From contig JBBTQW010000002.1 of the NCBI GenBank assembly GCA_038065495.1, forward strand, positions 362,641 through 426,640: a DNA stretch of 64,000 nucleotides. Reading direction: 5' to 3'. Positions 3,034 through 26,716 of this stretch are shown piece after piece (position 1 is the first letter of the stretch; each line of letters begins with the position of its first letter). The translations under genes were made by a program, and so were the position numbers. The notes under the pieces are model-generated. The model was not told where the DNA came from. It ran no database searches and saw only the letters and a list, made by a program, of their open reading frames with translations. Origin of the DNA: Patescibacteria group bacterium. GTDB taxonomy: Bacteria > Patescibacteriota > Minisyncoccia > Phycocordibacterales > JACOZG01.

Positions 3034-4140
3034 ATGAAACTAGAATGCCAGAAAGAAAAACTAAAAGAAGTGATCGCGCTAGCCGAGCGGATGACGGGCA
3101 AGAATCTCTCACTGCCAGTCTTGGCGCGCGTGCTCTTGATCGCCGAAGAAAGGCATTTAATAATCAGAGCGACTAATTTAGATTTGGGCTTGGAATGGCA
3201 ATTGCCGGCGAAGGTGGAGAAAACTGGTCAGGTGCTGGTAAATGGTGCCGTGCTGGCGAATTTCTTGGCAAATATTGGCGTGGTGGAAGATAAAATTAAA
3301 CTGGAGCTGGCTGGTGAAAACTTAAGCTTAACTAGTACCAGACACAAGACTGTCTTGAAAGTTTATCCGGCCGAAGACTTTCCCACTTTGCCAGAGATTG
3401 CTGGTACGGGTAAGTTAGCTCTCCCGGCCAGTGATCTGCTCGCTGGTTTACGTTCGGTAGCTTATGCTGCGGCACTGAACGATATTAAACCGGAGATTGC
3501 CAGTGTTTACCTGCACACGCAGCCGGGCTGTTTATTACTCGTCGCCACGGATTCGTTTCGCTTAGCCGAGAGCAAGATTAGCTTGAGCCACAGTCTGGAG
3601 AACAAGCTTAGGTTAATTATCCCGATTCGGAATATTACGGAAATTATGCGTGTGCTAGAGCGTTTGCCGGCGCAAGTGGAGTTAATTTATGATCAGCATC
3701 AGTTATCACTCAAGGCCGAGCAAGTCACACTCACTTCGCGCTTGATTGATGGCATCTTCCCTGATTATCAACAATTAATTCCCACCAAATCAGCCACGCA
3801 AGTGACACTCGATAAAACCGAGCTATTATCCACGCTGCGCGTCGCCAATATCTTTACCGATAGACTCAACCACGTAACGCTCAAAGTGCGCCCAGAAGAG
3901 CAATTGGTGGAAATGGAGAGCCGTAGCGGCGAGGTTGGTGAGGATACTAGTTTGTTGCCAGCAACAATCAGTGGTGAAGAACTCATAATCAGCTTTAATT
4001 CACGTTACTTGATCGAAGGTTTACAGTCTGTGATGTCAGATAAAGTATTTCTACAGTTTAATGGCAAAACTAAAGCGATTGTGGTGACCGGTGCGGGCGA
4101 GCAAGCTTTTACTTATCTCATCATGCCACTGAACCGGTAA
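3034..4140 (+). CDS. dnaN: DNA polymerase III beta sliding clamp
   Basis: 368 aa, immediately downstream of dnaA. Three-domain clamp length. Confidence 0.9.
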   Translation: MKLECQKEKLKEVIALAERMTGKNLSLPVLARVLLIAEERHLIIRATNLDLGLEWQLPAKVEKTGQVLVNGAVLANFLANIGVVEDKIKLELAGENLSLTSTRHKTVLKVYPAEDFPTLPEIAGTGKLALPASDLLAGLRSVAYAAALNDIKPEIASVYLHTQPGCLLLVATDSFRLAESKISLSHSLENKLRLIIPIRNITEIMRVLERLPAQVELIYDQHQLSLKAEQVTLTSRLIDGIFPDYQQLIPTKSATQVTLDKTELLSTLRVANIFTDRLNHVTLKVRPEEQLVEMESRSGEVGEDTSLLPATISGEELIISFNSRYLIEGLQSVMSDKVFLQFNGKTKAIVVTGAGEQAFTYLIMPLNR

Positions 4141-4450: not shown

Positions 4451-6922
4451 TTACTCAATATTGTTCAATAGCAAGTGCGTTTCGATTTCGTTTTTGTTAC
4501 CTACGCTGTCGCGGACGATCAAGCGCAAGAGATTGTCAGTTTTTAAATTATCAACGTCGGCCGGCACAAACGAGAATTCTACTGGTGGCTGCTTTACCGA
4601 GCCGAGATAAGCGCTATTGAGGAAATAATCCACTTGGCCAAGCGGGAAGCGCCCGCTGTAGCTGGCACTAATCTTGATTAAACTATTGGCCGGGTAACTT
4701 TTCTTCAAATCCGGCGCGAGTAAGACTAAATTAGGTTTGTAATCAGCGAGGTGCACGTCGTCTGTGGCTTGCGGTAGGTCAGTATCCGTTTGTTCGCGGA
4801 TATTTTGCGTTGCTAGCCAGCGGCGCACTGGCCCTTCCCACAGATCAAACTGCGGATCATCTTGGCGGTCGAGCCAGTAGAGAATCGAGTGGACTTGGGT
4901 GAGCACGCGCTCTTCTTGCGTCTCCGGTGGTGTGTATTCGGTCGCTAATTTACCCGACACTTTATCTACCAAGTAGCTCTTGCCGCCTTGCCAGAAGCCG
5001 CGCATCACCGGCGGCAGTTCGGTATTGAGTGGCTCTGGTTTAGTAAAAGTTTCAACTGGGATAACCTTGAAAGCTTCGGCCATAAAGGCGTGCCAGAGTG
5101 GCGCCACAATCAAGCCAGCCACCTTCTTCTCCATCGGACTATTGTCGTTATTGCCAGCCCAGGCGCCCACCGCAATATTTGGCGTGTAACCCACAATCCA
5201 GGCGTCTTTCGAGTCATTTGTTGTACCAGTCTTGGCGGCGACTGGCCGGTCAGAGAAATACAGCGGCGAATTAGCGCCATAAGCCGGCACGCGCGCCACG
5301 TTGTCTGACAAAATGTCAGAAATTAAACGCGCCGTATTGGCTGGCAAGACTTCGCGCGGCTTGGGTGTAAATTCTTCCAGAATATTGCCGGCGTCATCTT
5401 CTACTTTTAAGATCGCCGTGTATGGATTCCTGATGCCATCGTTGGCAAAGACGCCGTAGGCACTGGTCATGTCGAGTGGCGAGACTTCGCCACCGCCGAG
5501 CACCAGCGTGAGGCCGTATTGGCTCGCTGTCGTCAGACTCTCAATGCCCATGTTTTTTGCGAGATTAAGCGTATCTTTTAGACCCGCGAGATAAAGCACT
5601 TTTAGCGACGGAATGTTGATGGATTGTCCTAGCGCCTCGCGCATACTCATTGGGCCGCGGAATTTGTCGTCATAATTTTTTGGCTTATAACAATCGCCAC
5701 CGGTCTGATTACATGTGGTATCAAACTGCGTTTCGAGATCGAAGAGCATAGTCTCCGGCGTATAGCCTTTGTTGAAAGCCTCCGCATAAGCAAAAGGTTT
5801 AAACGCCGAACCCGGCTGGCGATGGGCGAGCGCGATATTAAAGTTTCCCTCATCTTTAGTATTAAAGTAATCTTTCGAACCAACCATCACTAGCACTTGG
5901 CCAGTCTTGGGATCAATCGCTACGAGGCTGGCGTTTTTCGCATTAAATTTCGCCAGATTTTCCTCCGCATATTGCTTCACAATTTCTTCGGCCTTTTGTT
6001 GGAGCGGGAAATCCAGTGTTGTTGTCACTTTTAAGCCGCGAGAATCCAGCGCCTCTTTGCCATACTTTTCTTCCAGATAATCACGGACCCAGAGCACAAA
6101 GTGGGGCGCCTTAATACCTTGCTCATTGGTCGTCAAGAAAGTCACTTTTTCTGCCAGCGCTTGCTCTTGTTCTACTTTAGTAATCAAGCTCAATTCTGCC
6201 ATGCGGTTTATTACCACATTTTTGCGTTTATCCAGATCAGCCCGGTGACTGCCATATGGTGAGTAATAAGTTGGCGCTTTCGGGATCGCCGCCAGGTAAG
6301 CCGCTTCGGCGAGAGTCGCTTCGCTAGCTGGTTTGCCAAAGAAAGTTTCCGAGGCTTCTTCCACACCGTAGATACTGCCGCCGTAAGGGATTTCGTTCAG
6401 GTAATGCGCCAAGATTTCGTCTTTGCCCATCACTTGCTCTAGCTTGAGTGAGAGAATCAACTCTTTGATTTTTCTCGCCCAACTCCGGTCTTGCGTTAGG
6501 AGCGAGTTTTTCACTAATTGCTGAGTAATAGTCGAGCCACCTTGCCGCACGCCACCAGCGCCGAGGTTGGCGATGAAAGCGCGCAAGATCGAGCTAATCA
6601 TCACGCCATTGTGCTGGTAAAACCGATCATCTTCGATCGCAATTGTGGCACTCTGGATATTCTTAGAGATTTCTGTAAGTGGTACAACCTGACGCTTGAT
6701 ATTGTTGTGGATGTCGTAGAGCAAAATCTTGCCGGTTTTATCGTAAATCTTAGTCGATTTGGTCACTACGCGTTCGGTAAAGTTATCAAAAGAGGGGATC
6801 TTGAGATTGGCGAACCACAAAGCGAGCAAGCCTCCACCGAGGAAGCAGGCAATTAGCACTATCAGCACGATTTTTACAGCCAGATGCTTAATATTCTCAC
6901 TATAACATTTTTCCCGTTTTTT
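4451..6922 (-). CDS. Class A penicillin-binding protein 1A (glycosyltransferase plus transpeptidase) with a long C-terminal extension
   Basis: GT51 motifs EDDRFYQHNG and QGGSTITQQLVKN. TPase SAFKPF (SxxK) and KTGTTND. True start is unresolved (see finding). The track ORF runs to 7108 through a low-complexity R/H/S-rich N-terminal stretch and a hairpin. Confidence 0.85.
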   Translation of the reverse strand, partial: KKREKCYSENIKHLAVKIVLIVLIACFLGGGLLALWFANLKIPSFDNFTERVVTKSTKIYDKTGKILLYDIHNNIKRQVVPLTEISKNIQSATIAIEDDRFYQHNGVMISSILRAFIANLGAGGVRQGGSTITQQLVKNSLLTQDRSWARKIKELILSLKLEQVMGKDEILAHYLNEIPYGGSIYGVEEASETFFGKPASEATLAEAAYLAAIPKAPTYYSPYGSHRADLDKRKNVVINRMAELSLITKVEQEQALAEKVTFLTTNEQGIKAPHFVLWVRDYLEEKYGKEALDSRGLKVTTTLDFPLQQKAEEIVKQYAEENLAKFNAKNASLVAIDPKTGQVLVMVGSKDYFNTKDEGNFNIALAHRQPGSAFKPFAYAEAFNKGYTPETMLFDLETQFDTTCNQTGGDCYKPKNYDDKFRGPMSMREALGQSINIPSLKVLYLAGLKDTLNLAKNMGIESLTTASQYGLTLVLGGGEVSPLDMTSAYGVFANDGIRNPYTAILKVEDDAGNILEEFTPKPREVLPANTARLISDILSDNVARVPAYGANSPLYFSDRPVAAKTGTTNDSKDAWIVGYTPNIAVGAWAGNNDNSPMEKKVAGLIVAPLWHAFMAEAFKVIPVETFTKPEPLNTELPPVMRGFWQGGKSYLVDKVSGKLATEYTPPETQEERVLTQVHSILYWLDRQDDPQFDLWEGPVRRWLATQNIREQTDTDLPQATDDVHLADYKPNLVLLAPDLKKSYPANSLIKISASYSGRFPLGQVDYFLNSAYLGSVKQPPVEFSFVPADVDNLKTDNLLRLIVRDSVGNKNEIETHLLLNNIE

Positions 6923-6924
6923 GG

Positions 6925-6968
6925 CGAAAAGAAAAAACGCCAGATCCCATTTCTGGGACGTGGCGTTT
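6925..6968 (-). terminator. Hairpin aacgcca-gatccca/tgggacg-tggcgtt with a T-rich tail on the minus strand
   Basis: 12-14 bp imperfect stem, then TTTTTCTTTTCGCC on the minus strand, downstream of the small gene 6991-7209. Confidence 0.4.
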
Positions 6969-6990
6969 GGTAGCAAGATCTGCTGGCCTG

Positions 6991-7209
6991 CTAGTCTCTC
7001 AAGATTAGTCTCTTGGTGACGACTGTATCTTGAACGGCTGTCTTGGTGGTGTGTTGTTCGACAACCTTCACCGTGACGTAAAGAGAGATGAAGGCAATAG
7101 CGAAGCAAGTAAGAATACTCAATGGTCTTTTTGCATGCTCAATAAACATCCCCGCCGCAAAAGTGACCATGAAAGATACCCCGATTGTAAGCAATACTAC
7201 ATTGGACAT
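6991..7209 (-). CDS. Small membrane protein (2 TM helices), hypothetical
   Basis: 72 aa from an internal Met (MSNVVLLTIGVSF...) with GGAG 7 nt upstream. Strong promoter TTGACA-N16-TGCTATAAT on the minus strand at 7270-7297. Confidence 0.5.
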   Translation of the reverse strand: MSNVVLLTIGVSFMVTFAAGMFIEHAKRPLSILTCFAIAFISLYVTVKVVEQHTTKTAVQDTVVTKRLILRD

Positions 7210-7269
7210 CGGAACACTCCAGTTTTGTAGGTTCATTCGAAGCAAGGACAATCCAAGCCTCCAACTCCT

Positions 7270-7297
7270 ATTATAGCAAGTCCACAGAACTTGTCAA
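7270..7297 (-). promoter_or_regulatory. Sigma-70 promoter with extended -10 (TTGACA / TGCTATAAT)
   Basis: Reverse complement reads cTTGACAagttctgtggacTTGCTATAAT. Near-identical spacer (ttctgtgga) to the promoter at 23303. Confidence 0.6.
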
Positions 7298-7360
7298 GAG
7301 GTAAAACGTGGCTCTAAATATAGCTGGTTTTGGTGTTAATTTTTGTGATAAGATATTGAA

Positions 7361-8524
7361 ATGAATAGTGATTTGCTCACCCGGGCTGTTTCTAATATCT
7401 ATCCAGCATCAGAAAAGCTGAAAAGCGCGCTGGAAAGTGGTCAGAAATTGCGTATTTACTTTGGCATTGACCCAACGGGGCCAACTTTGCACGTTGGGCA
7501 TTTGTCTGTTTTGCTAAAACTGCGTGATTTGCAGAACTTGGGTGAGCAGATCAAGATTGTGATCTTGTTTGGCGACTTTACGGCGCAGATTGGTGATCCA
7601 ACGGATAAGAGTGCTGTGCGGAAAATGTTGACGCCAGAAACTATTTCGGAAAATCTAAAAAATTATCGCGAACAGATTGGCAAAATTCTAGATTTAGAAA
7701 AAACGGAGTTTAGAAATAACAGCGAGTGGTTAGCGAAGCTTGGTTTGGAAAAATTATTGCCACTGGCATCAGAATTTACGGTGTCGCAAATGCTTGAACG
7801 CGACATGTTTCAAGAAAGAATCAAGAAAGAGTCACCGATTTATCTTCACGAATTTCTCTATCCGCTTTTGCAAGGTTACGATTCTGTTGTGTTAGAAGTA
7901 GATATGGAAATCGGCGGCAATGATCAGACTTTCAACATGCTTGTCGGTCGTGACCTCTTGAAAAAATTAAAAAGCAAAGAAAAGTTTGTGCTCGCGACTA
8001 AGTTACTGACAGATTCAGGTGGCGAGAAGATGGGCAAGACCACGGGCAACATGGTCGCTTTCGCTGACACTCCCACCGATGCTTATGGCAAAGTGATGAG
8101 CTGGCCGGATTCTCTTTTGCCACTAGCTTTTGAGCTCTGCACGAGATTAAGTGATGAAGAAGTAAAAAATATTTTGGCTGGTCATCCCAAAGAGGCCAAG
8201 ATGAAACTCGCGCACGAGATTGTCACACTAATTCATGACTCTAAATTAGCTGGCCAAGCAGAAGAATCTTTTGTGCAGACTTTTCAGAAAGAAGCAGAAC
8301 CAACTGAGTGGCAAGAGCTGACGGGGAAAGCGGGAGAGAAGATTTCAGAAATTTTAGTGAGTAATAGTGTAGTAAAGTCTAAAACTGATTTTAGAAATTT
8401 GGTGGAAGCCGGAGCGGTAGAGGAGTGGCCAAATAAAAATCCGATCGTTGCCGATCAGATTTTTACTGCGGAAATCAAGCTAAGGATTGGCAAGAAGCGC
8501 TTTGTGCGCATCCGGCCGGCTTAA
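7361..8524 (+). CDS. tyrS: Tyrosyl-tRNA synthetase
   Basis: 387 aa. HIGH motif (HVGHL). KMSKS variant KMGKT. C-terminal S4-like region. Confidence 0.9.
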   Translation: MNSDLLTRAVSNIYPASEKLKSALESGQKLRIYFGIDPTGPTLHVGHLSVLLKLRDLQNLGEQIKIVILFGDFTAQIGDPTDKSAVRKMLTPETISENLKNYREQIGKILDLEKTEFRNNSEWLAKLGLEKLLPLASEFTVSQMLERDMFQERIKKESPIYLHEFLYPLLQGYDSVVLEVDMEIGGNDQTFNMLVGRDLLKKLKSKEKFVLATKLLTDSGGEKMGKTTGNMVAFADTPTDAYGKVMSWPDSLLPLAFELCTRLSDEEVKNILAGHPKEAKMKLAHEIVTLIHDSKLAGQAEESFVQTFQKEAEPTEWQELTGKAGEKISEILVSNSVVKSKTDFRNLVEAGAVEEWPNKNPIVADQIFTAEIKLRIGKKRFVRIRPA

Positions 8525-8747: not shown

Positions 8748-9224
8748 TTAGGCCCGCGCCAGCGCCGTTAGAGCCAGCCCAATCGCATCGTATTCGTCAT
8801 CATGTTTGATCGCTTTGTTTATTTTGATCAGCTTGGGCAACATTTGCATCATTTGCGCTTTATCTGCTCGGCCGTAGCCGGTGATTGTCAGTTTCACAGT
8901 GTTCGGCGAGTGTTCGGAAATTTCTAAGTTATTTTTCTCGGCCAGATAGATAATCATTCCGCGCACGCTCGCTACCGCCATCGCCGTCTTCTGATTCTTG
9001 GCGAAAAATAAATCCTCTAGTGCCAAGCAGTCTGGCTGATATTTCTTAATAATTTTTTCTAATTCTGTACCCAGCTTCAACAATCTTTTAGAAAAAGTAA
9101 GATTCTTAGATGTAATTAAACAGTCAGAGTAAATTAGAATTTCTTGATTATTAGTGTTTTTACTTTTTTCTACAATAGCGACACCCAATCGCTCATAACC
9201 CGGATCAATGCCTAAAATCTTCAT
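8748..9224 (-). CDS. ruvC: Holliday junction resolvase RuvC
   Basis: 158 aa. N-terminus MKILGIDPGYERLGVAIVE is typical of RuvC. Confidence 0.85.
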   Translation of the reverse strand: MKILGIDPGYERLGVAIVEKSKNTNNQEILIYSDCLITSKNLTFSKRLLKLGTELEKIIKKYQPDCLALEDLFFAKNQKTAMAVASVRGMIIYLAEKNNLEISEHSPNTVKLTITGYGRADKAQMMQMLPKLIKINKAIKHDDEYDAIGLALTALARA

Positions 9225-9760
9225 GCCAGATTGGTCACTATTTTTTTAATATCCTCGTGGCTTTCTAATTCTTCTAGTAAAATATTTATTTTCTCACGAT
9301 CTTCAGTGCCCACTTCTGTTGTCATTTCTGCTGTCCAGTCAGTATTATTTATTTTTTTGAAAGCCCAAGTCACCGAGCCAGGCGTGGCCAGATTCCCGCC
9401 ATGTTCGGCCAGCAAGTGCTTAATTTCCTGATTAGTTCTGTTGTTGTTATCCGTAATGCCTTCAATCAGAATCGCCACACCGCCCGGGCCATAAACCTCG
9501 TACAAGACTTCCTGCAGTTCTGCACCGCCTTTATCTGTCGCATTTTTAATCGCCCTGTCTATATTCTCATTCGGCATATTTGCCGTGCGCGCCTTCTCAA
9601 TCGCCGTGCGCAGGCCGGGCAAATTCCGATCGCCGTTTGCTTTTTTTGCTTCTACCGAGATAGTTTTGGCCAAGATGCCAAAGAGTTTGCTTTTCTTACC
9701 GTCCTCTGCGCCTTTTTGCCGCTTAATCTGCGACCATTTGTTATGTCCAGCCATTGCCAC
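9221..9760 (-). CDS. YebC/PmpR family DNA-binding regulatory protein
   Basis: 179 aa. N-terminus MAGHNKWSQIKRQKGAEDGKKSKLF matches the YebC family. Shorter than the typical 240 aa. Confidence 0.75.
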   Translation of the reverse strand: MAMAGHNKWSQIKRQKGAEDGKKSKLFGILAKTISVEAKKANGDRNLPGLRTAIEKARTANMPNENIDRAIKNATDKGGAELQEVLYEVYGPGGVAILIEGITDNNNRTNQEIKHLLAEHGGNLATPGSVTWAFKKINNTDWTAEMTTEVGTEDREKINILLEELESHEDIKKIVTNLA

Positions 9761-9828: not shown

Positions 9829-9948
9829 TGCATTAAGGCCCAGTTTTGGGCTGATTTTGGTCTTTTACAAGAGAGGAGAGTGATAGTTCCGCTGTTTGGG
9901 GGACGTGTTCTTAACTTTGGGGGACATTTCTGTGTGAAGGAGAAAGTG

Positions 9949-10614
9949 ATGAAGAAAGCTTGTTGTTTGGTTTTGGCGTTGGTTCTGGCGGTGCTCGCTT
10001 CGCCGTTCGCGGTGGAGGCCAGCCAGGTTTCCTCGTTCCATCAGAGTTGGAATGTGGGCGGTTTCCAGGCCAATTACGGCGGTGGCACGGACGAGTTCGG
10101 CGCTTGGGGTCACGTGTGGGCCGAGTCCCCAGTCCATCGGATAGAAGGAGTTTACGCGTCGTTCGATCACCCGCAAGGGTCCTCTGACGATGTCTGGATT
10201 TGGTCTGTTGGCGTGCGCGGTATCAAGAACAATTCGCTCAATCAACAGTCGAATAGCACTTGGACGAATCTCAGTATCGCCGGCGTGAGCTTCAGTCAGG
10301 GCGCCGCGGTCGGTTATTCTGATTGGAATGGTGGCTTCAATAACGCTTCCGCCAGTCTGAATGTCGGCCCATCGCAGGTCAGTGGCGCCTATCTCTGGTA
10401 CAACGAGTATTGGGAAGAATACGACGGCCTAACTCACTTCTCGATCAACGTGAACTTCTACGGAAGCTTCGGCGCTGACGAGGAGGGGAGAATGCTCGGT
10501 CGTTCGTACTTTGGCCTCACGCCGGAACCCGGCTCGCTTGGTCAGATGGGCCTCGCCGCTCTTCTGCTCCTCTGGCGTCGGCCGATGGCGCTGAACCTCC
10601 GTTGCTTGTTCTGA
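9949..10614 (+). CDS. Secreted protein with N-terminal signal peptide and a PEP-CTERM-like C-terminal sorting signal
   Basis: AAGGAG RBS before ATG 9949. Signal peptide MKKACCLVLALVLAVLASPFAVEA. C-terminus TPEPGSLGQMGLAALLLLWRRP. GC-rich relative to neighbouring genes. Confidence 0.6.
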   Translation: MKKACCLVLALVLAVLASPFAVEASQVSSFHQSWNVGGFQANYGGGTDEFGAWGHVWAESPVHRIEGVYASFDHPQGSSDDVWIWSVGVRGIKNNSLNQQSNSTWTNLSIAGVSFSQGAAVGYSDWNGGFNNASASLNVGPSQVSGAYLWYNEYWEEYDGLTHFSINVNFYGSFGADEEGRMLGRSYFGLTPEPGSLGQMGLAALLLLWRRPMALNLRCLF

Positions 10615-10786: not shown

Positions 10787-11230
10787 ATGAAGCGTTACTT
10801 GTTGCTCGGTTGGCCGTTTGCGGTGCTTCTTGCCGTGGGTTTTGCAGGAGGCAGTGAGCTGAGAATCACTTCGGGGCTTGGAACATTTCTGTTTGCTATC
10901 ATTGCGGCAGCTTGCGCGTGTTGTGCCGTTTTCGGCACCATCCACGCTCGTGGCTTTCCGGCGGACTATCAATTTTTGGTGAATCACGCCATTTACGAAG
11001 TCTTGAATGTTTATCAAGCAGAAGGCTCGCGCCAGGATGACAAGGGTTCTGTTTGGTGGTTAGTTCTCCGTCATCAGAACGGTGACCAGCTTGTCTATAG
11101 CTGGCAAGGTGTTCCGCCAGTTTGTAGTACTTCGGTGAAGGTAAGGAGGGTGACGGCAGGTTCCACAAATGGCGGCTTTGTTCTCGACCCTTACCCACCG
11201 CCAGCAGAAAAGCCGAAAACGGATGTCTGA
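10787..11230 (+). CDS. Hypothetical membrane/secreted protein
   Basis: 147 aa. N-terminal hydrophobic segments. No recognisable domain. Confidence 0.5.
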   Translation: MKRYLLLGWPFAVLLAVGFAGGSELRITSGLGTFLFAIIAAACACCAVFGTIHARGFPADYQFLVNHAIYEVLNVYQAEGSRQDDKGSVWWLVLRHQNGDQLVYSWQGVPPVCSTSVKVRRVTAGSTNGGFVLDPYPPPAEKPKTDV

Positions 11231-11256
11231 TTCTCAGTAAGTTCAGTCGAAACCGT

Positions 11257-11305
11257 CCCGCTAGAGTCACAACAAAATGTTGTTGATTCTGGCGGGATTT
11301 TTTTA
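11257..11305. terminator. Bidirectional intrinsic terminator between convergent genes (10787 gene and ruvB)
   Basis: cccgctaga...caacaaaatgttgttg...tctggcggg stem with A-tract before and T8 after. Confidence 0.6.
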
Positions 11306-11316
11306 TTGCCAAAAAT

Positions 11317-12339
11317 CTAAATTAGTTTTCCCTGCTTATCTTGTGGATAATCGTAGCCGAGGTGATCATAAGCTTTTTTCGTTGCTTGGCGGCCGCGCGG
11401 CGTGCGCTCCAGCATTCCCAATTGAATTAAATATGGTTCATGGACTTCTTCAATCGTCGCTTCTTCTTCGTGCGTCGCCGTGGCAATCGTGCTCACGCCG
11501 ACTGGCCCGCCGTTGAACTTCTCAATCATCACGGCCAGCATTTTGCGGTCGCCTTCGGTCAGTCCCAGCTCGTCCACGCCCATTAGGCTTAGCGCTTCCC
11601 GCGAGATTTGGTGATTGATTTTCTCGTTTCGCAGTTGCGCGAGATCGCGACATCGCTTCAAGAACTGATTGGCAATCCGGGGTGTAAACCGACTGCGCTG
11701 GGCAATCTCCAGCGCTGCTTTTTCTTCCAGATCTACACCCAAGATCTGCGCCGAGCGCTGGATGATACTTTTTATTTCCTCACTGGAGTAAAATTCAAGC
11801 CGAAAAGTGCCACCGGAGAAGCGCGAGCGCAGTGGCGCAGAGAGTAATGCCGGTCGAGTGGTCGCGGCTACGAGCGTGAAGGGTGGGAGATCGAGTTGGA
11901 TCACGCGCGCGCCGGGACCTTTGCCAATAATGATATTTAATTTGCCACTTTCCATCGCGGGATAGAGAATTTCTTCGATCATTTTGTTCAAGCGATGCAC
12001 TTCGTCTATAAAGAGCATATCGCCTGATGCTAAATTGGTGAGAATGCTCGCGAGATCGCCGACGCGCTCAATGGCTGGGCCGGAAGTAATTTTTAACTGC
12101 GCACCAATCTCTTTGGCAATCAAGTGGGCGAGTGTGGTCTTGCCGAGGCCGGGTGGACCGTAGAAAAGTAGATGTTCCGGCGGCTGACCACGCTCTTTGG
12201 CGGCGCGGAGCAAGATTTGGAGGTTGTCTTTGATATTTTTTTGGCCAATATAATCGGCCCAGGCGCTTGGTCGGAGCGCACTATCGAGGAACCACTCGGG
12301 CGAGGCGGTATTTGGCTGGTTGTTCTTGCTACTTGACAT
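11317..12339 (-). CDS. ruvB: Holliday junction branch-migration ATPase RuvB
   Basis: 340 aa. Walker A GPPGLGKTTLAHLIA. RuvB winged-helix C-terminal domain. Confidence 0.95.
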   Translation of the reverse strand: MSSSKNNQPNTASPEWFLDSALRPSAWADYIGQKNIKDNLQILLRAAKERGQPPEHLLFYGPPGLGKTTLAHLIAKEIGAQLKITSGPAIERVGDLASILTNLASGDMLFIDEVHRLNKMIEEILYPAMESGKLNIIIGKGPGARVIQLDLPPFTLVAATTRPALLSAPLRSRFSGGTFRLEFYSSEEIKSIIQRSAQILGVDLEEKAALEIAQRSRFTPRIANQFLKRCRDLAQLRNEKINHQISREALSLMGVDELGLTEGDRKMLAVMIEKFNGGPVGVSTIATATHEEEATIEEVHEPYLIQLGMLERTPRGRQATKKAYDHLGYDYPQDKQGKLI

Positions 12340-12361
12340 TTAATCTTGGTTATGCTAGGAT
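12333..12361 (+). promoter_or_regulatory. Plus-strand promoter TTGACA-N17-TGcTAGGAT overlapping the ruvB start codon
   Basis: cTTGACAtttaatcttggttaTGCTAGGAT. Same family as the other strong promoters. Would transcribe the 238-nt ruvB-pilB intergenic region on the plus strand. Confidence 0.4.
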
Positions 12362-12367
12362 GCCCTT

Positions 12368-12570
12368 TGGTTGGTCATCAAGGTCATAAACCTCTAAGCA
12401 ACTAAGCTCTTCCGGGTTTAAACGGGTTTAGCCAAAAGGACAAGGCAGTTACTAGCTTTCGGGCCAGTTTGCTTCCTTTATCCTTGCGGCTTTACCTCAC
12501 TCTCCGCTTTGGCGGAGGGGCTTGCTTAGAGGTTTATGCTCTCGATGTAAGGTGCCAACCGTTCGGGATT
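12368..12570 (+). ncRNA. Candidate structured ncRNA of about 200 nt with extensive 5'/3' end pairing, class unknown (6S-like or SRP-like rod topology)
   Basis: Perfect 17-bp long-range helix 12385-12401 / 12522-12538. Outer GGUUGG/CCAACC (12368-73 / 12555-60). Inner CUCUUCC/GGAGGGG. Local hairpin ctccgc-tttg-gcggag. No ORF. Confidence 0.35.
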
Positions 12571-12577
12571 TACTCTA

Positions 12578-14275
12578 CTACAGAATTTCTTCGTGGATAT
12601 CCACCACTCGGCTTAGTTCACCCAGATCCGTCTCGCCTTTTAGCACTTTTAGCACGCCGTCTTGCCGCATATCTAGGATCCCTTGCGGCCGAGCGGCGAT
12701 TTTGATCTCCCGCTCGCTCGGATTCTCTACCAAGAGCGCCGCCACCGCATTATCAATCATAATTGCCTCAAATAATCCTTGCCGGCCGCGGTAACCGGTG
12801 TGATTACATTCGTCACAGCCGCCGACTTTTGGCTGCAAGACTTGGTCCGTGCTTGGCAGCACTAGGGTCGGCCGCTTGACCTTGATAGATTCTAGCACAG
12901 CGTCCAGTAATTTTTTTTCTTCACTTGTTGGCGTGCGCTTTTCTTTGCAAACTGGGCACAAATTGCGCACAAGCCGTTGCGCCATCGCTAAGTTTAGTGC
13001 CGAGTCGATAATTTTGGGATTCACGTCCAGATCAATCAATCTTGGCACCGTACCAGCGGCGTTATTGGTGTGGAGTGTAGAAAAAACAAGGTGACCAGTG
13101 AGTGAGGCGTTAATTGCAATCTTGGCTGTTTCTTTATCCCGAATTTCGCCGACCATAATGATGTCCGGATCTTGGCGAAGAGCGCTGCGCAAACCGGTTA
13201 AGAAAGTGTAATTCTTGTCTGGATTCACTTGTGTCTGGTTAATGCCTTGCAAGTGATATTCGATTGGATCTTCGATCGTGATAATTTTATTTTCTGAGTT
13301 GCTGACATAACGCAGAAAAGCATACAAAGTAGTTGTTTTACCCGAACCGGTGGGGCCGGTGAGGAAGACGGCCCCATTCGGTTTGGTAATCTCTTTTTTT
13401 ACAATTTCAAAGAGTTGCGGTTCGATTCCTAATGTTTCGAAAGTAACGGCAATTGCCTCGGGATTGAGCAAGCGCAGCACGATTGACTCGCCATAAGCGC
13501 CGGGCAAGATCGAAGTTCTGATTTCAATGTCTGTTTCGTTTAATCTAATACTTAACCGGCCATCTTGCGCGGACTTTTTGATATTCAACTTCAAGCCTGA
13601 TAGCAACTTTACTCTAGACAAAATCTGATTGTATAACTTGTGCTCGAGAAAAGTAACATCATGCAAGACGCCGTCTAGTCTAAATCTGACTCTCACTCTT
13701 TCTGCCTGCGGCTCAATGTGGATGTCAGACGCTTTCGTCACAATCCCGCCAGCCAGCAAGACTTCCAGAAGATTAGAAATGCCACCAGCCGCCAGCGCTG
13801 TTACGCCTTCGGCCGAGAAGAGTTGGTTGAGGCTAGCCAGGTCATTAATTTTCTTAGTAAACTCGGCAATGGCCTCATTAGAAATATCAATTACGCCCGC
13901 CTCTGTTCTAGTAGAGCGCGAAATTTCTTTGTAACGACTCCAAGCGCGGTCCAGACTAGCCTGTGAGCCGAGATAGAGATTGAGATTATAATTTTTCTCA
14001 CGCAACTCTGCTAAAGCATTTTTCGTTTCCTGCTTCTCTGGCGAGATAGTGACGAGAAACAAATTCCGGCCACTAAGTTTAAAAGCCGCGAGACTACTCT
14101 TGCGCGCATCAGTTTCGCTAATCAGTCTCAACGCATCAGTATTGATAGGGAACTTAGAGAGATCGATGTAGGGGATCTGATATTTCGCCGAGAGCATATC
14201 GGCCAGCGCCTCGGCCTCATGGCCGTGGAGCTCGGCGAGCTTCTTAACCTCCGTTTCGTCACTAAATTTAAGCAT
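12578..14275 (-). CDS. pilB: Type IV pilus / type II secretion assembly ATPase (PilB/GspE family)
   Basis: 565 aa. Walker A FLTGPTGSGKTTTLYA. C-terminal tetracysteine CPVCK...CDECNHTGYRGRQG. N-terminal GSPII domain. Confidence 0.9.
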   Translation of the reverse strand: MLKFSDETEVKKLAELHGHEAEALADMLSAKYQIPYIDLSKFPINTDALRLISETDARKSSLAAFKLSGRNLFLVTISPEKQETKNALAELREKNYNLNLYLGSQASLDRAWSRYKEISRSTRTEAGVIDISNEAIAEFTKKINDLASLNQLFSAEGVTALAAGGISNLLEVLLAGGIVTKASDIHIEPQAERVRVRFRLDGVLHDVTFLEHKLYNQILSRVKLLSGLKLNIKKSAQDGRLSIRLNETDIEIRTSILPGAYGESIVLRLLNPEAIAVTFETLGIEPQLFEIVKKEITKPNGAVFLTGPTGSGKTTTLYAFLRYVSNSENKIITIEDPIEYHLQGINQTQVNPDKNYTFLTGLRSALRQDPDIIMVGEIRDKETAKIAINASLTGHLVFSTLHTNNAAGTVPRLIDLDVNPKIIDSALNLAMAQRLVRNLCPVCKEKRTPTSEEKKLLDAVLESIKVKRPTLVLPSTDQVLQPKVGGCDECNHTGYRGRQGLFEAIMIDNAVAALLVENPSEREIKIAARPQGILDMRQDGVLKVLKGETDLGELSRVVDIHEEIL

Positions 14276-15125: not shown

Positions 15126-15557
15126 ATGGTAGAAAAGTTGAGCAAAAGTCTAGAGGAGACGAGAGAATTAGCCAGAGATTTCTTGGCTAGTTTGAACGCG
15201 AATAATACCAGCGCAACTGTTGTTGGTTTGTCTGGAGATCTTGGTTCTGGTAAAACCGCCTTCACGCAAGCCTTGGCGCGCGAGCTAGGCATCTCTGAAC
15301 CAATCACCAGCCCGACTTTTGTGCTTGAAAAAATATATAAACTAGAGAATCAGAAATTCGGGAAGTTAATTCACGTTGATGCGTATAGATTAGAGGGTGG
15401 CGCAGAATTATTGAAACTCGGTTTTGCAGAATTATTGCAAGATAAAAGTAATTTGATAATTATTGAGTGGGTCGAGAGAGTGCGAGAAATTTTGGGTGAG
15501 TTTAGAGAAATAGATTTTAAATTTATTGATGAACAAACTCGTGAAATCAAATACTAA
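15126..15557 (+). CDS. tsaE: tRNA t6A37 threonylcarbamoyladenosine biosynthesis protein TsaE
   Basis: 143 aa. P-loop GLSGDLGSGKTAFTQ. SPTFVL and HVDAYRL motifs of YjeE/TsaE. Confidence 0.8.
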   Translation: MVEKLSKSLEETRELARDFLASLNANNTSATVVGLSGDLGSGKTAFTQALARELGISEPITSPTFVLEKIYKLENQKFGKLIHVDAYRLEGGAELLKLGFAELLQDKSNLIIIEWVERVREILGEFREIDFKFIDEQTREIKY

Positions 15558-17910
15558 AGTTAAAACTAAAAATAAAAACAGCAAGAAGCTAATCTTGCTC
15601 GACGCGCATGCGATTATCCATCGCGCTTATCACGCGCTACCAGACTTCCAGAATAGCGCTGGTGTGCCCACGGGCGCGCTGTACGGTATCGCCGCGATGC
15701 TGGTGAAAATTATTAACGAACTCAAGCCGGATTATCTGGTGGCTTGTTACGACCGTGCGGAGGCCACTTTCCGGAAGCAGATTTATGATGATTACAAAGC
15801 TGGTCGGGCGAAGACGGAAGATAATCTGGTTGCGCAACTTGAGAGTTCACGTGAATTATTCACGAGCTTCAATATTCCCATCTATGATCTCGCCGGCTTC
15901 GAAGCTGATGACATGATTGGCACGATTGTAGAGCAGATTAAGCAAGATAAAACGCAGAAGAACACGCAAGTGATTATCGCGAGTGGCGATATGGACACAC
16001 TTCAGCTGGTTGATGATGAGAAAGTGGTGGTTTATACGCTCAAGAAGGGAATTAATGACACTATTCTGTATGACGAGCAGAAAGTGGTTGAACGCTTTGG
16101 CTTCAAGCCAGAACTCTTGCCGGATTGGAAAGGTTTGCGTGGTGATCCGAGTGACAACATCATCGGCATTGCGGGCATTGGTGAGAAAACGGCGACTATT
16201 TTGATTACTAAATTTGGCAAACTGGAAGAGATTTATAAAAAACTGAAAGATAAGAAAGTAGAGAAAGAAAATTTTAAGATTTTCAGAGAAGCGGGCTTAA
16301 CTGACAGAATTATTAAATTACTAAAAGATGGCGAAGAAGAAGCGATTTTTTCGAAAACGCTCGCCACGATTCGAAGAGACGCCGGAATTAAGTTTGTGTG
16401 GCCGGAGAAAGTCTGGCGGGAGAGTGTGGATCTCGAAAAAGTGGATGAGTTGTTTAAGAAACTGGAATTCCGAACACTTGGCACGCGTGTGAGATCAGCG
16501 CTAAGTGGCGAAGCGGTGATTAGCGCGAAAACTCCAGCTAAGCCAGAGCCAGAAATATTAGAATCAGAGCTGGCGATTGCGGTTGGCTTGCTGGATTCGG
16601 AAGTGGGCAGTGCGCCGACAAGAGAAGATCTGGAGCGCTTGGGCGGAGAAGAGAAAGTCTTAGCTGAACTAAAAAAGACTAATTTACAAAAAGTTTATGA
16701 AAATATCGAATTGCCACTTGTTGCTATTCTGGAGAAAGCGCAAGAGCACGGGATTCTGGTTGATGTAAAATATTTGAAAAAATTATCAGAGCAATATCAT
16801 GCCGAACAGACAGAAATAGAGCAGAGAATTTATAAAACCGTTGGTCAGGAGTTTAATCTTAATTCGCCGAAACAGCTTGCTGAAATCTTGTTTGATAAAT
16901 TGATGCTGAAAACGGGTAAAAAAACCGCCGGTGGCGCACGCAGTACGAAAGAATCTGAGCTAATTAAACTGCAAGATTCTCATCCGGTAATTGCTGATAT
17001 TCTCGCTTATCGCGAATTACAGAAATTGCTCTCCACTTACATCGATAGTTTGCCAAACTTGGTAGATAAAAACGGCCGACTGCACTCTAAACTGCATCAA
17101 CTCGGCGCTGCGACTGGGCGGATGTCTTCGTCTGATCCTAATCTCCAGAATATCCCAGCGAGTGGTGAGCGCGCAACGGAAATTAGGCGCGCTTTTCTGG
17201 CCAGTCCGGGCTACGCTTGGTGCGCTTGTGATTATTCGCAGATCGAGATGCGTGTGCTGGCAGCTCTCTCGGGAGATCAAGAATTGATCCGGATTTTCAA
17301 CGCTGGCGAGGATGTGCACACGAGTGTAGCCGTGCGCGTTTTCAAAGTTAAGCCAGAAAATGTCACAAAAGAAATGCGACGCCGCGCGAAGGTGATTAAC
17401 TTTGGCATTGTGTATGGCATGGGCGTTAATGCGTTGAAGGCGAATTTGGGAACGAGCCGAGACGAAGCGCAGAAATTCTATGACGATTATTTCGCAAACT
17501 TTCCCAGCATCCAGAACTATTTCGAAGAAGTTAAGACTAATGCACGGAAACTGGGTTATACCGAAACTTTCTTTGGCCGACGCAGATATTTCTCCGGACT
17601 CAAGTCTAGCTTGCCATTTGTGCGCGCGATGAACGAGCGCATGGCGGTGAATGCGCCGCTCCAAGGCACAGCGGCGGATATTGTGAAGATTGCGATGCGC
17701 GAAGTGGATGAGTTAATTCAGAAGAACAAGTGGCAAGATTCGGTGCACTTACTACTCCAAGTCCACGACGAGCTGATCTATGAGATCAAGAGTGAGAAAG
17801 TAGACGAGATTCTACCGCAAATCAAGCAAGCAATGGAGAATGTGAAAGGCTTGAGCGTGCCGCTGGTCGCCACAGCGGGGAGTGGGCCGAACTGGGCGGA
17901 GGTGAGGTAA
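15529..17910 (+). CDS. polA: DNA polymerase I (5'-3' exonuclease plus polymerase domains; 3'-5' exonuclease domain apparently reduced)
   Basis: 5'-nuclease LLDAHAIIHRAYHAL. Pol motif A DYSQIEMRVLA. Motif B RRRAKVINFGIVYGMG. Motif C QVHDELIYE. Confidence 0.9.
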   Translation: MNKLVKSNTKVKTKNKNSKKLILLDAHAIIHRAYHALPDFQNSAGVPTGALYGIAAMLVKIINELKPDYLVACYDRAEATFRKQIYDDYKAGRAKTEDNLVAQLESSRELFTSFNIPIYDLAGFEADDMIGTIVEQIKQDKTQKNTQVIIASGDMDTLQLVDDEKVVVYTLKKGINDTILYDEQKVVERFGFKPELLPDWKGLRGDPSDNIIGIAGIGEKTATILITKFGKLEEIYKKLKDKKVEKENFKIFREAGLTDRIIKLLKDGEEEAIFSKTLATIRRDAGIKFVWPEKVWRESVDLEKVDELFKKLEFRTLGTRVRSALSGEAVISAKTPAKPEPEILESELAIAVGLLDSEVGSAPTREDLERLGGEEKVLAELKKTNLQKVYENIELPLVAILEKAQEHGILVDVKYLKKLSEQYHAEQTEIEQRIYKTVGQEFNLNSPKQLAEILFDKLMLKTGKKTAGGARSTKESELIKLQDSHPVIADILAYRELQKLLSTYIDSLPNLVDKNGRLHSKLHQLGAATGRMSSSDPNLQNIPASGERATEIRRAFLASPGYAWCACDYSQIEMRVLAALSGDQELIRIFNAGEDVHTSVAVRVFKVKPENVTKEMRRRAKVINFGIVYGMGVNALKANLGTSRDEAQKFYDDYFANFPSIQNYFEEVKTNARKLGYTETFFGRRRYFSGLKSSLPFVRAMNERMAVNAPLQGTAADIVKIAMREVDELIQKNKWQDSVHLLLQVHDELIYEIKSEKVDEILPQIKQAMENVKGLSVPLVATAGSGPNWAEVR

Positions 17911-17912
17911 TA

Positions 17913-17941
17913 TTTACAAAAAAGTGTTATGTTGCTAATGT
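17913..17941 (+). promoter_or_regulatory. Promoter TTTACA-N17-TGcTAATGT
   Basis: Downstream of the polA stop. Drives a short non-coding transcript. Confidence 0.4.
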
Positions 17942-17948
17942 GTGGCTG

Positions 17949-18123
17949 ATGGTTGGCGGCTGGTGCCTTGATTCAAAATGAGACTCGACCTAACCATGTC
18001 CCATTGGGGCATCGACTACAACACAATACCACTGGATGCATCCGGTAATTAATCGAGGAGATCACACCAGCTGCCCCCATCATTTATCGCCCAGACATAC
18101 TGTCTAAGGGCGGTTTTTCTTTT
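17949..18123 (+). ncRNA. Candidate structured ncRNA of about 175 nt with its own promoter and intrinsic terminator
   Basis: Long closing helix UGAUGG-uu-GGCGGCUGGUG (17952-68) / CACCAGCUGCC-c-CCAUCA (18068-87). Internal palindrome GGATGCATCC. Terminator cgccc-agac...gtct-aa-gggcg plus T-tract 18088-18123. Only 10-24 aa ORFs, none with an SD. Confidence 0.35.
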
Positions 18124-18136
18124 CCCAAAACTTTCA

Positions 18137-18145
18137 TGCTATAAT
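18137..18145 (+). promoter_or_regulatory. Extended -10 TGCTATAAT for the mgtC-like gene
   Basis: tcaTGCTATAATctgc 25 nt upstream of ATG 18170. Confidence 0.5.
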
Positions 18146-18169
18146 CTGCTTAAGTAAAAAGAGCAAAAT

Positions 18170-18652
18170 ATGCTAGATATTGCCGTCAATAACTGGGAGA
18201 TTATCGCCAAACTGATTTTCGCTGTTGTCCTCGGCGGCGCGGTGGGCATTGAGCGCTCGCTGGCGGGCAAGACGGCGGGCATGCGCACCTATGCGCTGGT
18301 GAGCATGGGCTCGGCGCTCTTTGTGATTATCGCTGACCTGGTGACGCGGCAGTACTTGGCGCTGGGGATCCGCAGTTTTGACCCGCTCCGCGTGGCCTCG
18401 CAGATTGTGGTGGGCATCGGCTTCTTGGGCGCGGGTTTGATTATTTTCAAAGATCACAAGGTCAGTGGCCTCACCACCGCGGCGGGTGTGTGGGTCTCCT
18501 CCGGCATTGGCATGGCCGTGGGTTATGGTTTGTATACTCTGGGATTATTTGTTTCTATTCTCACGCTGTTGATTTTTACCGTTTTCTGGACTTTGGAAGA
18601 AAAAGTGGCGGGCAATCGCGCTGGTGGCGGGGCGGGCCGAGAAAAAGAGTAA
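18170..18652 (+). CDS. MgtC/SapB family membrane protein
   Basis: 160 aa. IIAKLIFAVVLGGAVGIERSLAGKTAGMRTYALVSMGSALF matches the MgtC N-domain. Confidence 0.75.
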   Translation: MLDIAVNNWEIIAKLIFAVVLGGAVGIERSLAGKTAGMRTYALVSMGSALFVIIADLVTRQYLALGIRSFDPLRVASQIVVGIGFLGAGLIIFKDHKVSGLTTAAGVWVSSGIGMAVGYGLYTLGLFVSILTLLIFTVFWTLEEKVAGNRAGGGAGREKE

Positions 18653-18659
18653 GCCAAGT

Positions 18660-19277
18660 ATGGTGACGAAGCTTAGTTTGGATCTAAGTGGGCGAACTGA
18701 AGCGCTGAAGAAAATAAAACAAGAAGTTCTAGCGCTAGAAAGCTCGCCACTGTATGAGTTTAGAATTGCGAATAAAAACTTGCCGGTGATCGGCGAAGGC
18801 GCTCACGACGCCAAAATTATGTTTGTAGGCGAGGCACCGGGCAAGAACGAAGCGGCGACTGGTCGGCCCTTCTGTGGTGCGTCGGGCAAATTGCTAGATG
18901 AACTATTAGCTTCAGTAAAAATTTCTCGCGAGTCTGTTTATATTACAAATATTGTGAAAGACAGACCGCCAGAAAACAGAGATCCCAGTCCAGAAGAAAT
19001 CAAAATTTATGGACCATTTCTCGATAAACAGATTGAGATTATCCAGCCAGAGATAATTGCCACGCTTGGGCGCTTCTCAATGCAATACATTATGACGAGA
19101 TTTGGTTTAGCGGATATTCTGCTCCCAATTAGCCAGATGCACGGGCAACTTTTTGAAACAGAAACGACTTATGGCAAAGTAAAAATCCTGCCACTTTATC
19201 ATCCCGCCGCGGCGATCTACAATCGCGCACTGCTGGATACGCTCAAATTAGATTTTGCCAAATTGCGAGAATTGTGA
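18660..19277 (+). CDS. Uracil-DNA glycosylase, family 4
   Basis: MFVGEAPGKNEAATGRPFCGASGKLL family-4 UDG motif. Start taken at the internal Met MVTKL; the track ORF begins at 18624. Confidence 0.8.
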   Translation: MVTKLSLDLSGRTEALKKIKQEVLALESSPLYEFRIANKNLPVIGEGAHDAKIMFVGEAPGKNEAATGRPFCGASGKLLDELLASVKISRESVYITNIVKDRPPENRDPSPEEIKIYGPFLDKQIEIIQPEIIATLGRFSMQYIMTRFGLADILLPISQMHGQLFETETTYGKVKILPLYHPAAAIYNRALLDTLKLDFAKLREL

Positions 19278-26129: not shown

Positions 26130-26131
26130 AT

Positions 26132-26716
26132 TTATTTGCTCAACTGCTTGAGCGCAAATTTTATCTTCTCACTCGTTTCTGTTACGCTTTCCGGCACGCG
26201 CTGGAGCGCCTCGCGGGCTTCGCGCAAGCTGTAACCCAGCGCTTGCAGCGCCTCAATCGCCTCGGCCTCACTTTGTCGTTCGGTAGACTTAGTATCTGCC
26301 AGCGCGATACTGCCCAGTTTATCTTTCAGTTCTAAAACTATTTTTTCCGCACTTTTCCGGCCAATGCCGGAAACTTTCGTGAGATAGCCAGCATCGCTTG
26401 CCGTGATCGCTTTCTCTAGCACTTCTGGCGGCGCGAGCGATAAAATTGCAATCGCGCTTTTCGGTCCAATCCCCGAAACGCCAATCAATAATTCAAAAAA
26501 GTCTAGCTCGCGTTGCTCCAAGAAGCCGTACAAGTCTAGTGCATTTTCTCGCACAATCAAGTGCGTCCAGAACTTTACTATCTCGTTCCCGTTCTCACTT
26601 TTTAGTCGCTTGAGTGCCTCCAGCGAGAGATTAACGCGGTAGCCGACGCCGTTGACGTCTAGGATAACGTGCTTCTCGCCACGCTTGGCGATAGTGCCGG
26701 TCAGTTGCCCAATCAT
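26132..26716 (-). CDS. ruvA: Holliday junction helicase subunit RuvA
   Basis: 194 aa. N-terminus MIGQLTGTIAKRGEKHVILDVNGVGYRV. HhH motifs. Confidence 0.9.
   Translation of the reverse strand: MIGQLTGTIAKRGEKHVILDVNGVGYRVNLSLEALKRLKSENGNEIVKFWTHLIVRENALDLYGFLEQRELDFFELLIGVSGIGPKSAIAILSLAPPEVLEKAITASDAGYLTKVSGIGRKSAEKIVLELKDKLGSIALADTKSTERQSEAEAIEALQALGYSLREAREALQRVPESVTETSEKIKFALKQLSK

Follow-up and report, generated by a model that had tools for sequence, protein, structure and literature searches.

The stretch of DNA analysed here, called the window throughout, comprises 64,000 nucleotides of contig JBBTQW010000002.1 from a Patescibacteria group bacterium (assembly GCA_038065495.1). Within it, ruvB and a gene for a PilB-type ATPase, both on the minus strand, are separated by a gap of 238 nt, and this gap appears to hold the gene for a structured small RNA (sRNA) of about 190 nt that is read from the plus strand. 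An earlier note on the letters of the window had pointed to an independently transcribed, structured non-coding RNA at this place, and the proposal is now strongly supported by conservation, covariation, a strand asymmetry, a conserved promoter and the terminators of related copies. The gap was also said to contain no open reading frame (ORF). This agrees with the ORF listing, where no minus-strand ORF of at least 30 amino acids lies inside the gap and the plus-strand ORFs that reach into it lie antisense to ruvB or pilB. The genes and signals are arranged as follows.

11317-12339, minus strand: ruvB (Pfam RuvB_N, 8e-70; RuvB_C; AAA_lid_4)
12333-12338, plus strand: -35 hexamer TTGACA of the sRNA promoter
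12353-12361, plus strand: extended -10 element TGCTAGGAT (TGnTAnnnT), a motif present in 72 of the 81 loci where the promoter overlaps the ruvB start
12368-12561, plus strand: predicted sRNA of about 190 nt (covariance model match at 12367-12556, 150.4 bits; fold z = -7.2)
12578-14275, minus strand: gene for a PilB-type T2SSE ATPase (Pfam T2SSE, 1e-115; MshEN), convergent with the sRNA

The 5' end of the sRNA was placed about 7 nt past the -10 element. The 3' end is approximate and coincides with the end of the closing stem, P1.

Promoter and terminators of the sRNA

The promoter consists of TTGACA, a spacer of 17 nt, a TG at 12353-12354 and TAGGAT at 12356-12361, all on the plus strand. Its -35 box overlaps the start of ruvB, as the earlier note had described, and the CAT at 12337-12339 is the ruvB ATG in reverse complement. 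The site in the window is by itself weak evidence, as 1 site was found against 0.4 expected in shuffled sequences. The promoter is conserved in the relatives, where almost every copy of the RNA is preceded on its own strand by CTTGACAT, then by 16-17 nt and then by TGnTAnnnT. A strict promoter scan, which misses -10 boxes of the TAAGCT type, was positive at 71 of 105 loci, and these 71 promoters showed a perfect TTGACA in 63, the TG in 66 and the 17-nt spacer in 67 cases. We conclude that the predicted promoter is a near-consensus extended -10 promoter of the sigma-70 type, reading into the plus strand.

Downstream of the RNA, many relatives have a hairpin followed by a T-run. In some lineages an A-run pairs with a T-run in the outer part of P1, and the stem itself then ends in U's. 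Promoter and terminator features together would define a discrete transcript, with a start between a few and about 110 nt ahead of P1 and an end at P1 or immediately behind it. Downstream of the RNA there is a CAATTGACA box, which was considered as a second promoter and rejected because these letters encode the C-terminus of PilB (...SIEF*).

Fold of the RNA

The sequence from 12365 to 12577 folds to -91 kcal/mol (z = -7.2), and none of 200 shuffled sequences folded as well. The 17-bp helix between 12385-12401 and 12522-12538, reported earlier as perfect, is exact; it extends to 26 nt at 88% complementarity, and the outer pairing of GGUUGG with CCAACC is also part of the minimum-energy fold. 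The ends of the RNA do pair, in P1, but they do not form the rod that had been suggested. Instead, P1 (about 27-31 bp; about 31 bp in the window) closes a four-way junction with the three hairpins P2, P3 and P4, and the junction linkers are 0-4 nt long. The local hairpin ctccgc-tttg-gcggag is real and conserved, and corresponds to P4. A further pairing of CUCUUCC with GGAGGGG had to be given up, as the two segments belong to the separate covarying hairpins P2 and P4. The parts of the RNA, all on the plus strand, are listed here.

12369-12401: P1 closing stem, 5' strand, including the 17-nt arm 12385-12401 (helix, fold, covariation)
12403-12420: P2 hairpin, variable in sequence and length among the members (6 of 7 pairs covary)
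12424-12497: P3, a long hairpin with a conserved base (AGGAC / UAUCCU) and a variable apical part (alignment, covariation)
12500-12519: P4 hairpin ctctccgc-tttg-gcggaggg (9 of 9 pairs change on both sides; 90.9% of cells paired)
12522-12560: P1 closing stem, 3' strand, including the 17-nt arm 12522-12538 (helix, fold, covariation)

The conserved sequence clusters round the junction, at the top of P1 and at the bases of P3 and P4. The loops, the P3 tip and the whole of P2 vary, and may even be missing. In the main clade the top of P1 reads AAUCUCUAAGCAAU / AUUGYUUAGAGAUU; distant members have covarying forms of it, for example CUGGAGGCAAU / AUUGCCUCCGG. P3 holds a nearly invariant tandem U.G/G.U (CUGG/CUGG) that adjoins the AGGAC / UAUCCU base with a 1x2 internal loop, and P2 contains G-U pairs, which are A-C mismatches on the opposite strand.

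No conserved single-stranded seed was found in the RNA, where the conserved nucleotides lie almost all in the helices around the junction and the loops vary, and an sRNA that pairs in trans through a seed was rejected on this ground. When pseudoknots and loop-loop contacts were looked for by mutual information with the average product correction, only clade-level signals and possible one-pair helix extensions were obtained. The conserved junction core, together with the lack of a seed and of a pseudoknot signal, suggests that the folded core is recognised by a protein, or less likely by a ligand, and that the RNA does not act by base-pairing.

Some members are naturally shortened. Most of P3 is absent from the model alignment in four loci (L031, L029, L023 and L051) and P2 is absent in another (L002); all of them retain P1 and P4. 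Such deletion variants could help to define the minimal functional core.

Conservation, covariation and strand

Searches with the gap sequence by nhmmer and BLAST gave weak matches directly upstream of ruvB in 10 loci. Each of these regions folds singly into the same P1-P4 architecture, and RNAalifold, run on a plain MAFFT alignment of the 10 copies, gave 63 pairs, of which 41 had compensatory double changes. A covariance model (CM), R1, was built from this consensus. It matched 39 of 55 ruvB loci with 18-174 bits, directly upstream of ruvB and on the strand divergent from it, and had a single match in the window, at 12367-12556 with 150 bits. Three divergent copies (L032, L036 and L040) have a different P1 sequence with the same promoter, fold and position. 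Another one (L041) scored 18.5 bits in the default R1 search and folds like the other divergent copies, and two more (L038 and L039) were recovered at the same place with the CM filters off. The closest RuvB relatives among the GTDB genomes are metagenome-assembled genomes of Patescibacteria, also called the Candidate Phyla Radiation (CPR), with 57-77% identity, and among the labels are Vogel-, Taylor-, Kaiser-, Nomura- and Paceibacteria. Most loci that lack the RNA come from non-CPR bacteria with ruvA upstream of ruvB. In all, the RNA is known from more than 100 related genomes or loci.

Covariation was measured on 88 sequences, 85 of them distinct, in a CM-fitted alignment. Standard pairs occupied 91.1% of the pair cells, compared to 73.3% after shuffling of the columns and no more than 52% with the partners slid by 1-3 columns. 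Among the 85 distinct sequences, 53 of the 63 pairs changed on both sides. The covariation score was 0.495, with 0.188 in the shuffles, and was reached by none of 500 shuffles. In P1, 23 of 27 pairs changed on both sides and 94% of the cells were paired; for P2 the paired cells amounted to 90.6%. The MAFFT-only consensus and the independent single-sequence folds agree with this result. Conservation and covariation of the helix in relatives, which the earlier note had proposed to look for, were thus both found. The covariation is very strong, and this comparative evidence strongly supports that the structured RNA family of the Patescibacteria is real.

A long inverted repeat with conserved arm sequence might also be a DNA-level element, such as a cruciform or palindromic protein site, a recombination site or a miniature transposable element. 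The 64-kb window holds only one copy, and the element always stands at the same ruvB locus, for which a mobile element was rejected. Moreover, the internal hairpins covary and use G-U pairs, which matter only in RNA, and distant members change the arm sequence and keep the pairing. The probability of a DNA-level element is therefore negligible in our view. A phage origin was rejected as well: the two IMG/VR hits (L176 at 3515-3660 and L177 at 9988-10113) are chance pairs of 10-mers in coding DNA, with no CM match and neither ruvB nor pilB nearby.

The minus strand of the window also folds well (z = -6.8), because P1 is a near-perfect palindrome. The relatives separate the two strands. The paired cells of the CM-fitted alignment contain 343 G-U or U-G pairs against 51 A-C or C-A pairs, and those of the MAFFT-only alignment 90 against 17. 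The alifold energy is -60.9 kcal/mol for the sense (plus) strand and -31.8 kcal/mol for the antisense strand, whose consensus loses P2-P4. In 101 of 105 members the sense strand is the more stable one, with a mean difference of 14 kcal/mol. The excess of G-U pairs, the sense alifold energy and the stability of the members argue for an RNA on the plus strand, divergent from ruvB and convergent with pilB.

These strand data bear directly on the idea of a minus-strand 5' leader, riboswitch or attenuator of ruvB. Such an element would be expected where the RNA is found, directly upstream of ruvB at every locus, and the folding of the minus strand would suit it. The preference of the members for the plus strand, the loss of P2-P4 from the antisense consensus and the conserved promoter and terminators on the plus strand all speak against it, and the 27-bp P1 is too stable for a switch. 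We consider a ruvB leader extremely improbable. A riboswitch or 5' leader was rejected in general terms also, as the next gene is convergent in 85 of 93 loci, ruvB is on the other strand and selection acts on the plus-strand fold.

Linkage to ruvB

A metagenome scan was directed to the RNA and was independent of ruvB. It used the two P1 arms in the form of CTCTAARCAA, 100-130 nt and TTGYTTAGAG. The scan returned 80 loci, 66 of them with strong CM matches. An immediately upstream and divergent ruvB was present in 61 of 61 testable loci, and the remaining 5 end at a contig edge. On the other side of the RNA the PilB-type ATPase gene is the usual neighbour, found in 75 of 93 loci, with other genes in the rest; in two of them (L092 and L121) it is replaced by a DapB-like gene on the strand of the RNA. 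As ruvB is always adjacent and the downstream gene varies, ruvB is the invariant partner of the RNA.

The -35 box of the sRNA is closely tied to the start of this partner: it is the exact reverse complement of the first ATG in the ruvB ORF plus the following TCA-A in 27 of 38 GTDB loci. TTGACAT was found upstream of the RNA in 81 of 105 loci and its reverse complement reads "MS" in 81 of 81, where the in-frame position of the ATG with ruvB was not confirmed locus by locus for the metagenome loci. RuvB thus starts with Met-Ser, and either the opposite-strand promoter dictates its first two codons or the reverse holds.

On the ruvB strand, a TAnnnT occurs at -18 to -13 in 52 of the 81 overlap loci, compared to 0-5 of 81 for control offsets. 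Its TA is at the same time that of the sRNA -10 element, and the two together read AnnnTAnnnT. A second TAnnnT lies at -13 to -8 in 28 of the 81 loci, and the window copy has TAGCAT at -18 to -13. In six loci where the RNA is 200-430 nt away from ruvB (L027, L014, L012, L006, L022 and L049), a TGnTAnAAT box precedes the ruvB ATG by 6-8 nt, which at this short distance implies a leaderless ruvB mRNA in those loci. In the common arrangement, too, the ruvB mRNA probably has little or no leader and would arise from a weak promoter that is interleaved with the strong one of the sRNA. Bidirectional promoters, including a class with 23 bp, have been described in which polymerase binding one way excludes the other (PMC12825309). 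AnnnTAnnnT is the geometry that we derived for this 23-bp class, and at the sequence level the interleaved promoters would belong to it.

The PilB stop codon lies within or near the 3' strand of P1 or the T-run in several loci (L003, L011, L001, L015 and others, at offsets of -10 to +2). The RNA gene there fills the whole intergenic space and overlaps the signals of both neighbours.

With this arrangement, the RNA might act mainly in cis: strong antisense transcription, together with the very large P1 hairpin serving as a terminator in both directions, would shield ruvB from read-through out of pilB, and the RNA product would be secondary. In a variant, the RNA could pair with a long ruvB leader or with the 3' untranslated region of pilB. 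The position of the RNA between pilB and ruvB, opposite in strand to both and next to ruvB in 100% of the testable loci, fits with a cis role. So do the A-run and T-run of the outer P1, which in several lineages are the signature of a bidirectional terminator, the overlap of the pilB stop codon with the RNA 3' end and the promoter-like sites on the ruvB strand beyond the RNA 3' end in about 14 of 105 loci. But a cis role needs neither the selection on the plus-strand fold, visible in the 7:1 ratio of G-U over A-C and in a sense energy twice that of the antisense strand, nor the conserved junction core. The sRNA starts about 29 nt upstream of the ruvB ATG and therefore cannot cover the ruvB start region. 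Further, ruvB apparently has its own promoter 6-18 nt from the ATG, and a conserved ruvB-strand promoter beyond the RNA, looked for in the 105 loci, showed no dominant position. A mainly cis-acting element appears unlikely to us.

Comparison with known RNA families

At the gathering score, Rfam 15 (4,227 families) detected only tRNAs elsewhere in the window and had no relevant match in 17 relatives. The element itself had no match at E <= 10, with the 6S, signal recognition particle (SRP), RNase P, transfer-messenger RNA (tmRNA) and Y RNA models included, and the element of one relative (L010) gave only chance-level fragments of MEG8_3 and ARRPOF at this threshold. ARAGORN found 0 genes in 12200-12700. 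A tRNA, a tmRNA and an RNase P RNA were rejected accordingly. The earlier note had thought of 6S or SRP RNA and named the Rfam models for both, although it had seen no convincing SRP domain IV motif. Neither identity held up, since no model matched at E <= 10 and the RNA has no open bubble and no helix-8 hairpin. The SRP (4.5S) RNA, rejected for the missing match to domain IV and helix 8 and to Rfam, is unlikely also because ffh and ffs were both reported as undetected in Parcubacteria genomes (PMC4508563). We also rejected the idea that the enclosed 120 nt are a 5S rRNA with a processing stem, as no 5S model matched and the topology is wrong by inspection, with three hairpins instead of the 5S three-way junction. 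Topic and sequence-string searches of the literature found no description of the RNA in the papers that they covered. It is apparently an undescribed RNA family, absent from Rfam.

The similarity to 6S RNA needs a closer look. 6S RNAs are abundant, 180-200 nt long and recognised mainly by their shape, and their central unpaired bubble resembles an open promoter (PMC9130861). A patescibacterial 6S RNA, or a functional analogue that binds the RNA polymerase holoenzyme, would have P1 as the closing stem, P3 as the terminal stem and P2 and P4 as folded strands of the bubble. The size of about 190 nt, the long end stem (P1 of 27-31 bp), the interruption roughly midway between two long arms, the strong promoter, the single copy in the window and the clade-wide presence are all compatible with this, and the 5'-side element P2 is the least constrained part. 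However, the unpaired central bubble that defines 6S is absent: P2 (90.6% of cells paired, 6 of 7 pairs covarying) and P4 (90.9%, 9 of 9) are hairpins with about 91% of their cells paired, they covary no less strongly than the other parts of the RNA, and the linkers at the junction measure 0-4 nt. Neither RF00013 nor the related 6S-like models matched at E <= 10 in the window or in L010, and the strong sequence conservation of P1 is atypical of 6S. We regard a 6S identity as quite doubtful.

Proposed role of the sRNA

We favour the reading that the locus encodes a previously unclassified, stand-alone, stable structured sRNA, which is conserved among Patescibacteria of the Paceibacteria/Parcubacteria type, binds protein in trans and has its promoter interleaved with that of ruvB. 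As a whole we consider this reading rather probable. That the sRNA is a stable, trans-acting, protein-binding RNA is proposed with moderate confidence. The RNA would act through its folded core, as a component of a ribonucleoprotein (RNP) or as a sequestering RNA, and not by pairing with mRNAs. At the level of the sequence, the -35 box doubles as codons 1-2 of ruvB, and the TAnnnT of the ruvB strand and the -10 element of the sRNA have their TA in common; the polymerase would therefore bind in one orientation at a time. The strong sRNA direction would then compete with the weak ruvB direction, from which a leaderless ruvB mRNA or one with a very short leader would arise. The shared bidirectional promoter would fix the RNA and ruvB together, which as proposed is why the RNA never separates from ruvB. 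Consequences in cis would be added by the promoter competition with ruvB and, in some lineages, by a bidirectional terminator after pilB.

Several points weigh against this reading. The ruvB linkage persists in lineages without promoter overlap, and a shared promoter therefore explains the synteny at best in part. In the window copy the -10 candidates on the ruvB strand are poor, and a recognisable terminator was not found. The conserved TATG upstream of the -10 element could simply be the TRTG motif of extended -10 promoters in Gram-positive bacteria, and in this case the TATG would be no evidence for a ruvB promoter. The ends, abundance and stability of the RNA are all inferred, and protein binding is argued from the conservation pattern alone. 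CM-made alignments lean towards the structure of the model, and the conservation of the P1 sequence is inflated in the metagenome set, which was found by a P1 pattern.

A more specific idea is that the four-way-junction RNA, tied for good to the ruvB promoter, is a partner or decoy of the Holliday-junction machinery and binds RuvA/RuvB or another junction-recognising protein, in the way that 6S RNA mimics an open promoter. It would draw on the absolute linkage to ruvB even without promoter overlap, on the compact junction with its conserved core and on the separation of ruvA from ruvB in this genome. The probability of this appears very small to us. If true, the RNA would titrate branch-migration activity in cells that rely on DNA uptake and recombination.

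The Patescibacteria (CPR) account for a large part of the diversity of bacteria, and of their non-coding RNAs hardly anything is known. The RNA described here was found at essentially every Paceibacteria-type ruvB locus examined and comes with a covariance model that is ready for genome annotation. In these cells with their minimal gene sets, it is a candidate for a new stable RNP RNA. The locus further offers an uncommonly clear natural example of a promoter that sits within the start codon of the adjacent gene and has been retained across a deep radiation, and because of this position the competition between the promoters of an sRNA and of a DNA-repair gene is directly testable.

Genomic neighbourhood

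A ruvA homologue lies at about 26130-26716 on the minus strand, 14 kb from ruvB, and has 40% identity to residues 1-132 of E. coli RuvA. The thought that the RNA replaces RuvA was rejected, as this ruvA is present in the window (at about 26.1-26.7 kb). L042, L044, L045 and L047, which are non-CPR loci, have ruvA directly upstream of ruvB, at the position that the RNA has in Paceibacteria. Downstream of ruvB and on the same strand are ruvC (8748-9224, minus) and yebC (9221-9760, minus). The ORFs between yebC and ruvB, for example at 10899-11312 (minus) and 9880-10614 (plus), had no Pfam match.

The regions 4451-8524 and 15126-19277 encode among others a class A penicillin-binding protein, a class I (Trp/Tyr) tRNA synthetase and TsaE, and further a DNA polymerase I, an MgtC-family protein and a uracil-DNA glycosylase. 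Genes for DNA repair and replication cluster round the ruvB-pilB locus. Between 22354 and 35802, 7 tRNA genes are found within about 13 kb, 6 on the plus and 1 on the minus strand; they are the only Rfam matches of the window.

Relation to known systems

Like raiA, OLE, ROOL, HEARO and similar RNAs, the family was found comparatively and shows heavy covariation, a conserved core and no known function. It differs from them in that it has no Rfam 15 match, is limited to the Patescibacteria as far as seen and has an invariant gene partner.

In the Y RNA YrlA, as here, the 5' and 3' ends form a long stem of conserved sequence that is topped by a multi-helix module, and both RNAs are presumed to bind protein. 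The module of YrlA is a tRNA-like four-way junction. The RNA at ruvB matches neither Y RNA nor YrlA in Rfam, is without a T-loop-like 7-nt loop, is not located beside rsr or rtcB and has about twice the length of YrlA.

In the msr-msd RNA of retrons, which is 150-250 nt long, a long terminal inverted repeat closes 2-3 hairpins. The RNA described here is of comparable size and has such a repeat around its set of hairpins. Its neighbours are pilB and ruvB, and its position is fixed across a whole class, unlike that of a mobile defence element. A retron RNA was rejected, as a reverse transcriptase gene was found neither downstream nor among the neighbours scanned.

With 6S RNA (RF00013) and Ms1 the RNA shares the length of about 180-200 nt, the ends paired in a long stem, two long arms with a central interruption, a strong promoter of the housekeeping type, the single copy in the window and a recognition that would follow shape more than sequence. 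It differs in its centre, which is a closed four-way junction with two covarying hairpins and not an open bubble, in the lack of CM similarity and in the conserved sequence of P1 and the junction core.

The predicted promoter pair resembles the bidirectional, pseudo-symmetrical promoters of bacteria (PMC12825309) in that the -10 elements on opposite strands share a TA (AnnnTAnnnT) with the 23-bp spacing, where one orientation excludes the other. The pair at ruvB is different in that one arm has a TG and a full consensus -35 box, and this box lies inside the first codons of the partner gene. The arrangement at ruvB also joins an sRNA to a DNA-repair gene and has been kept throughout a very broad radiation.

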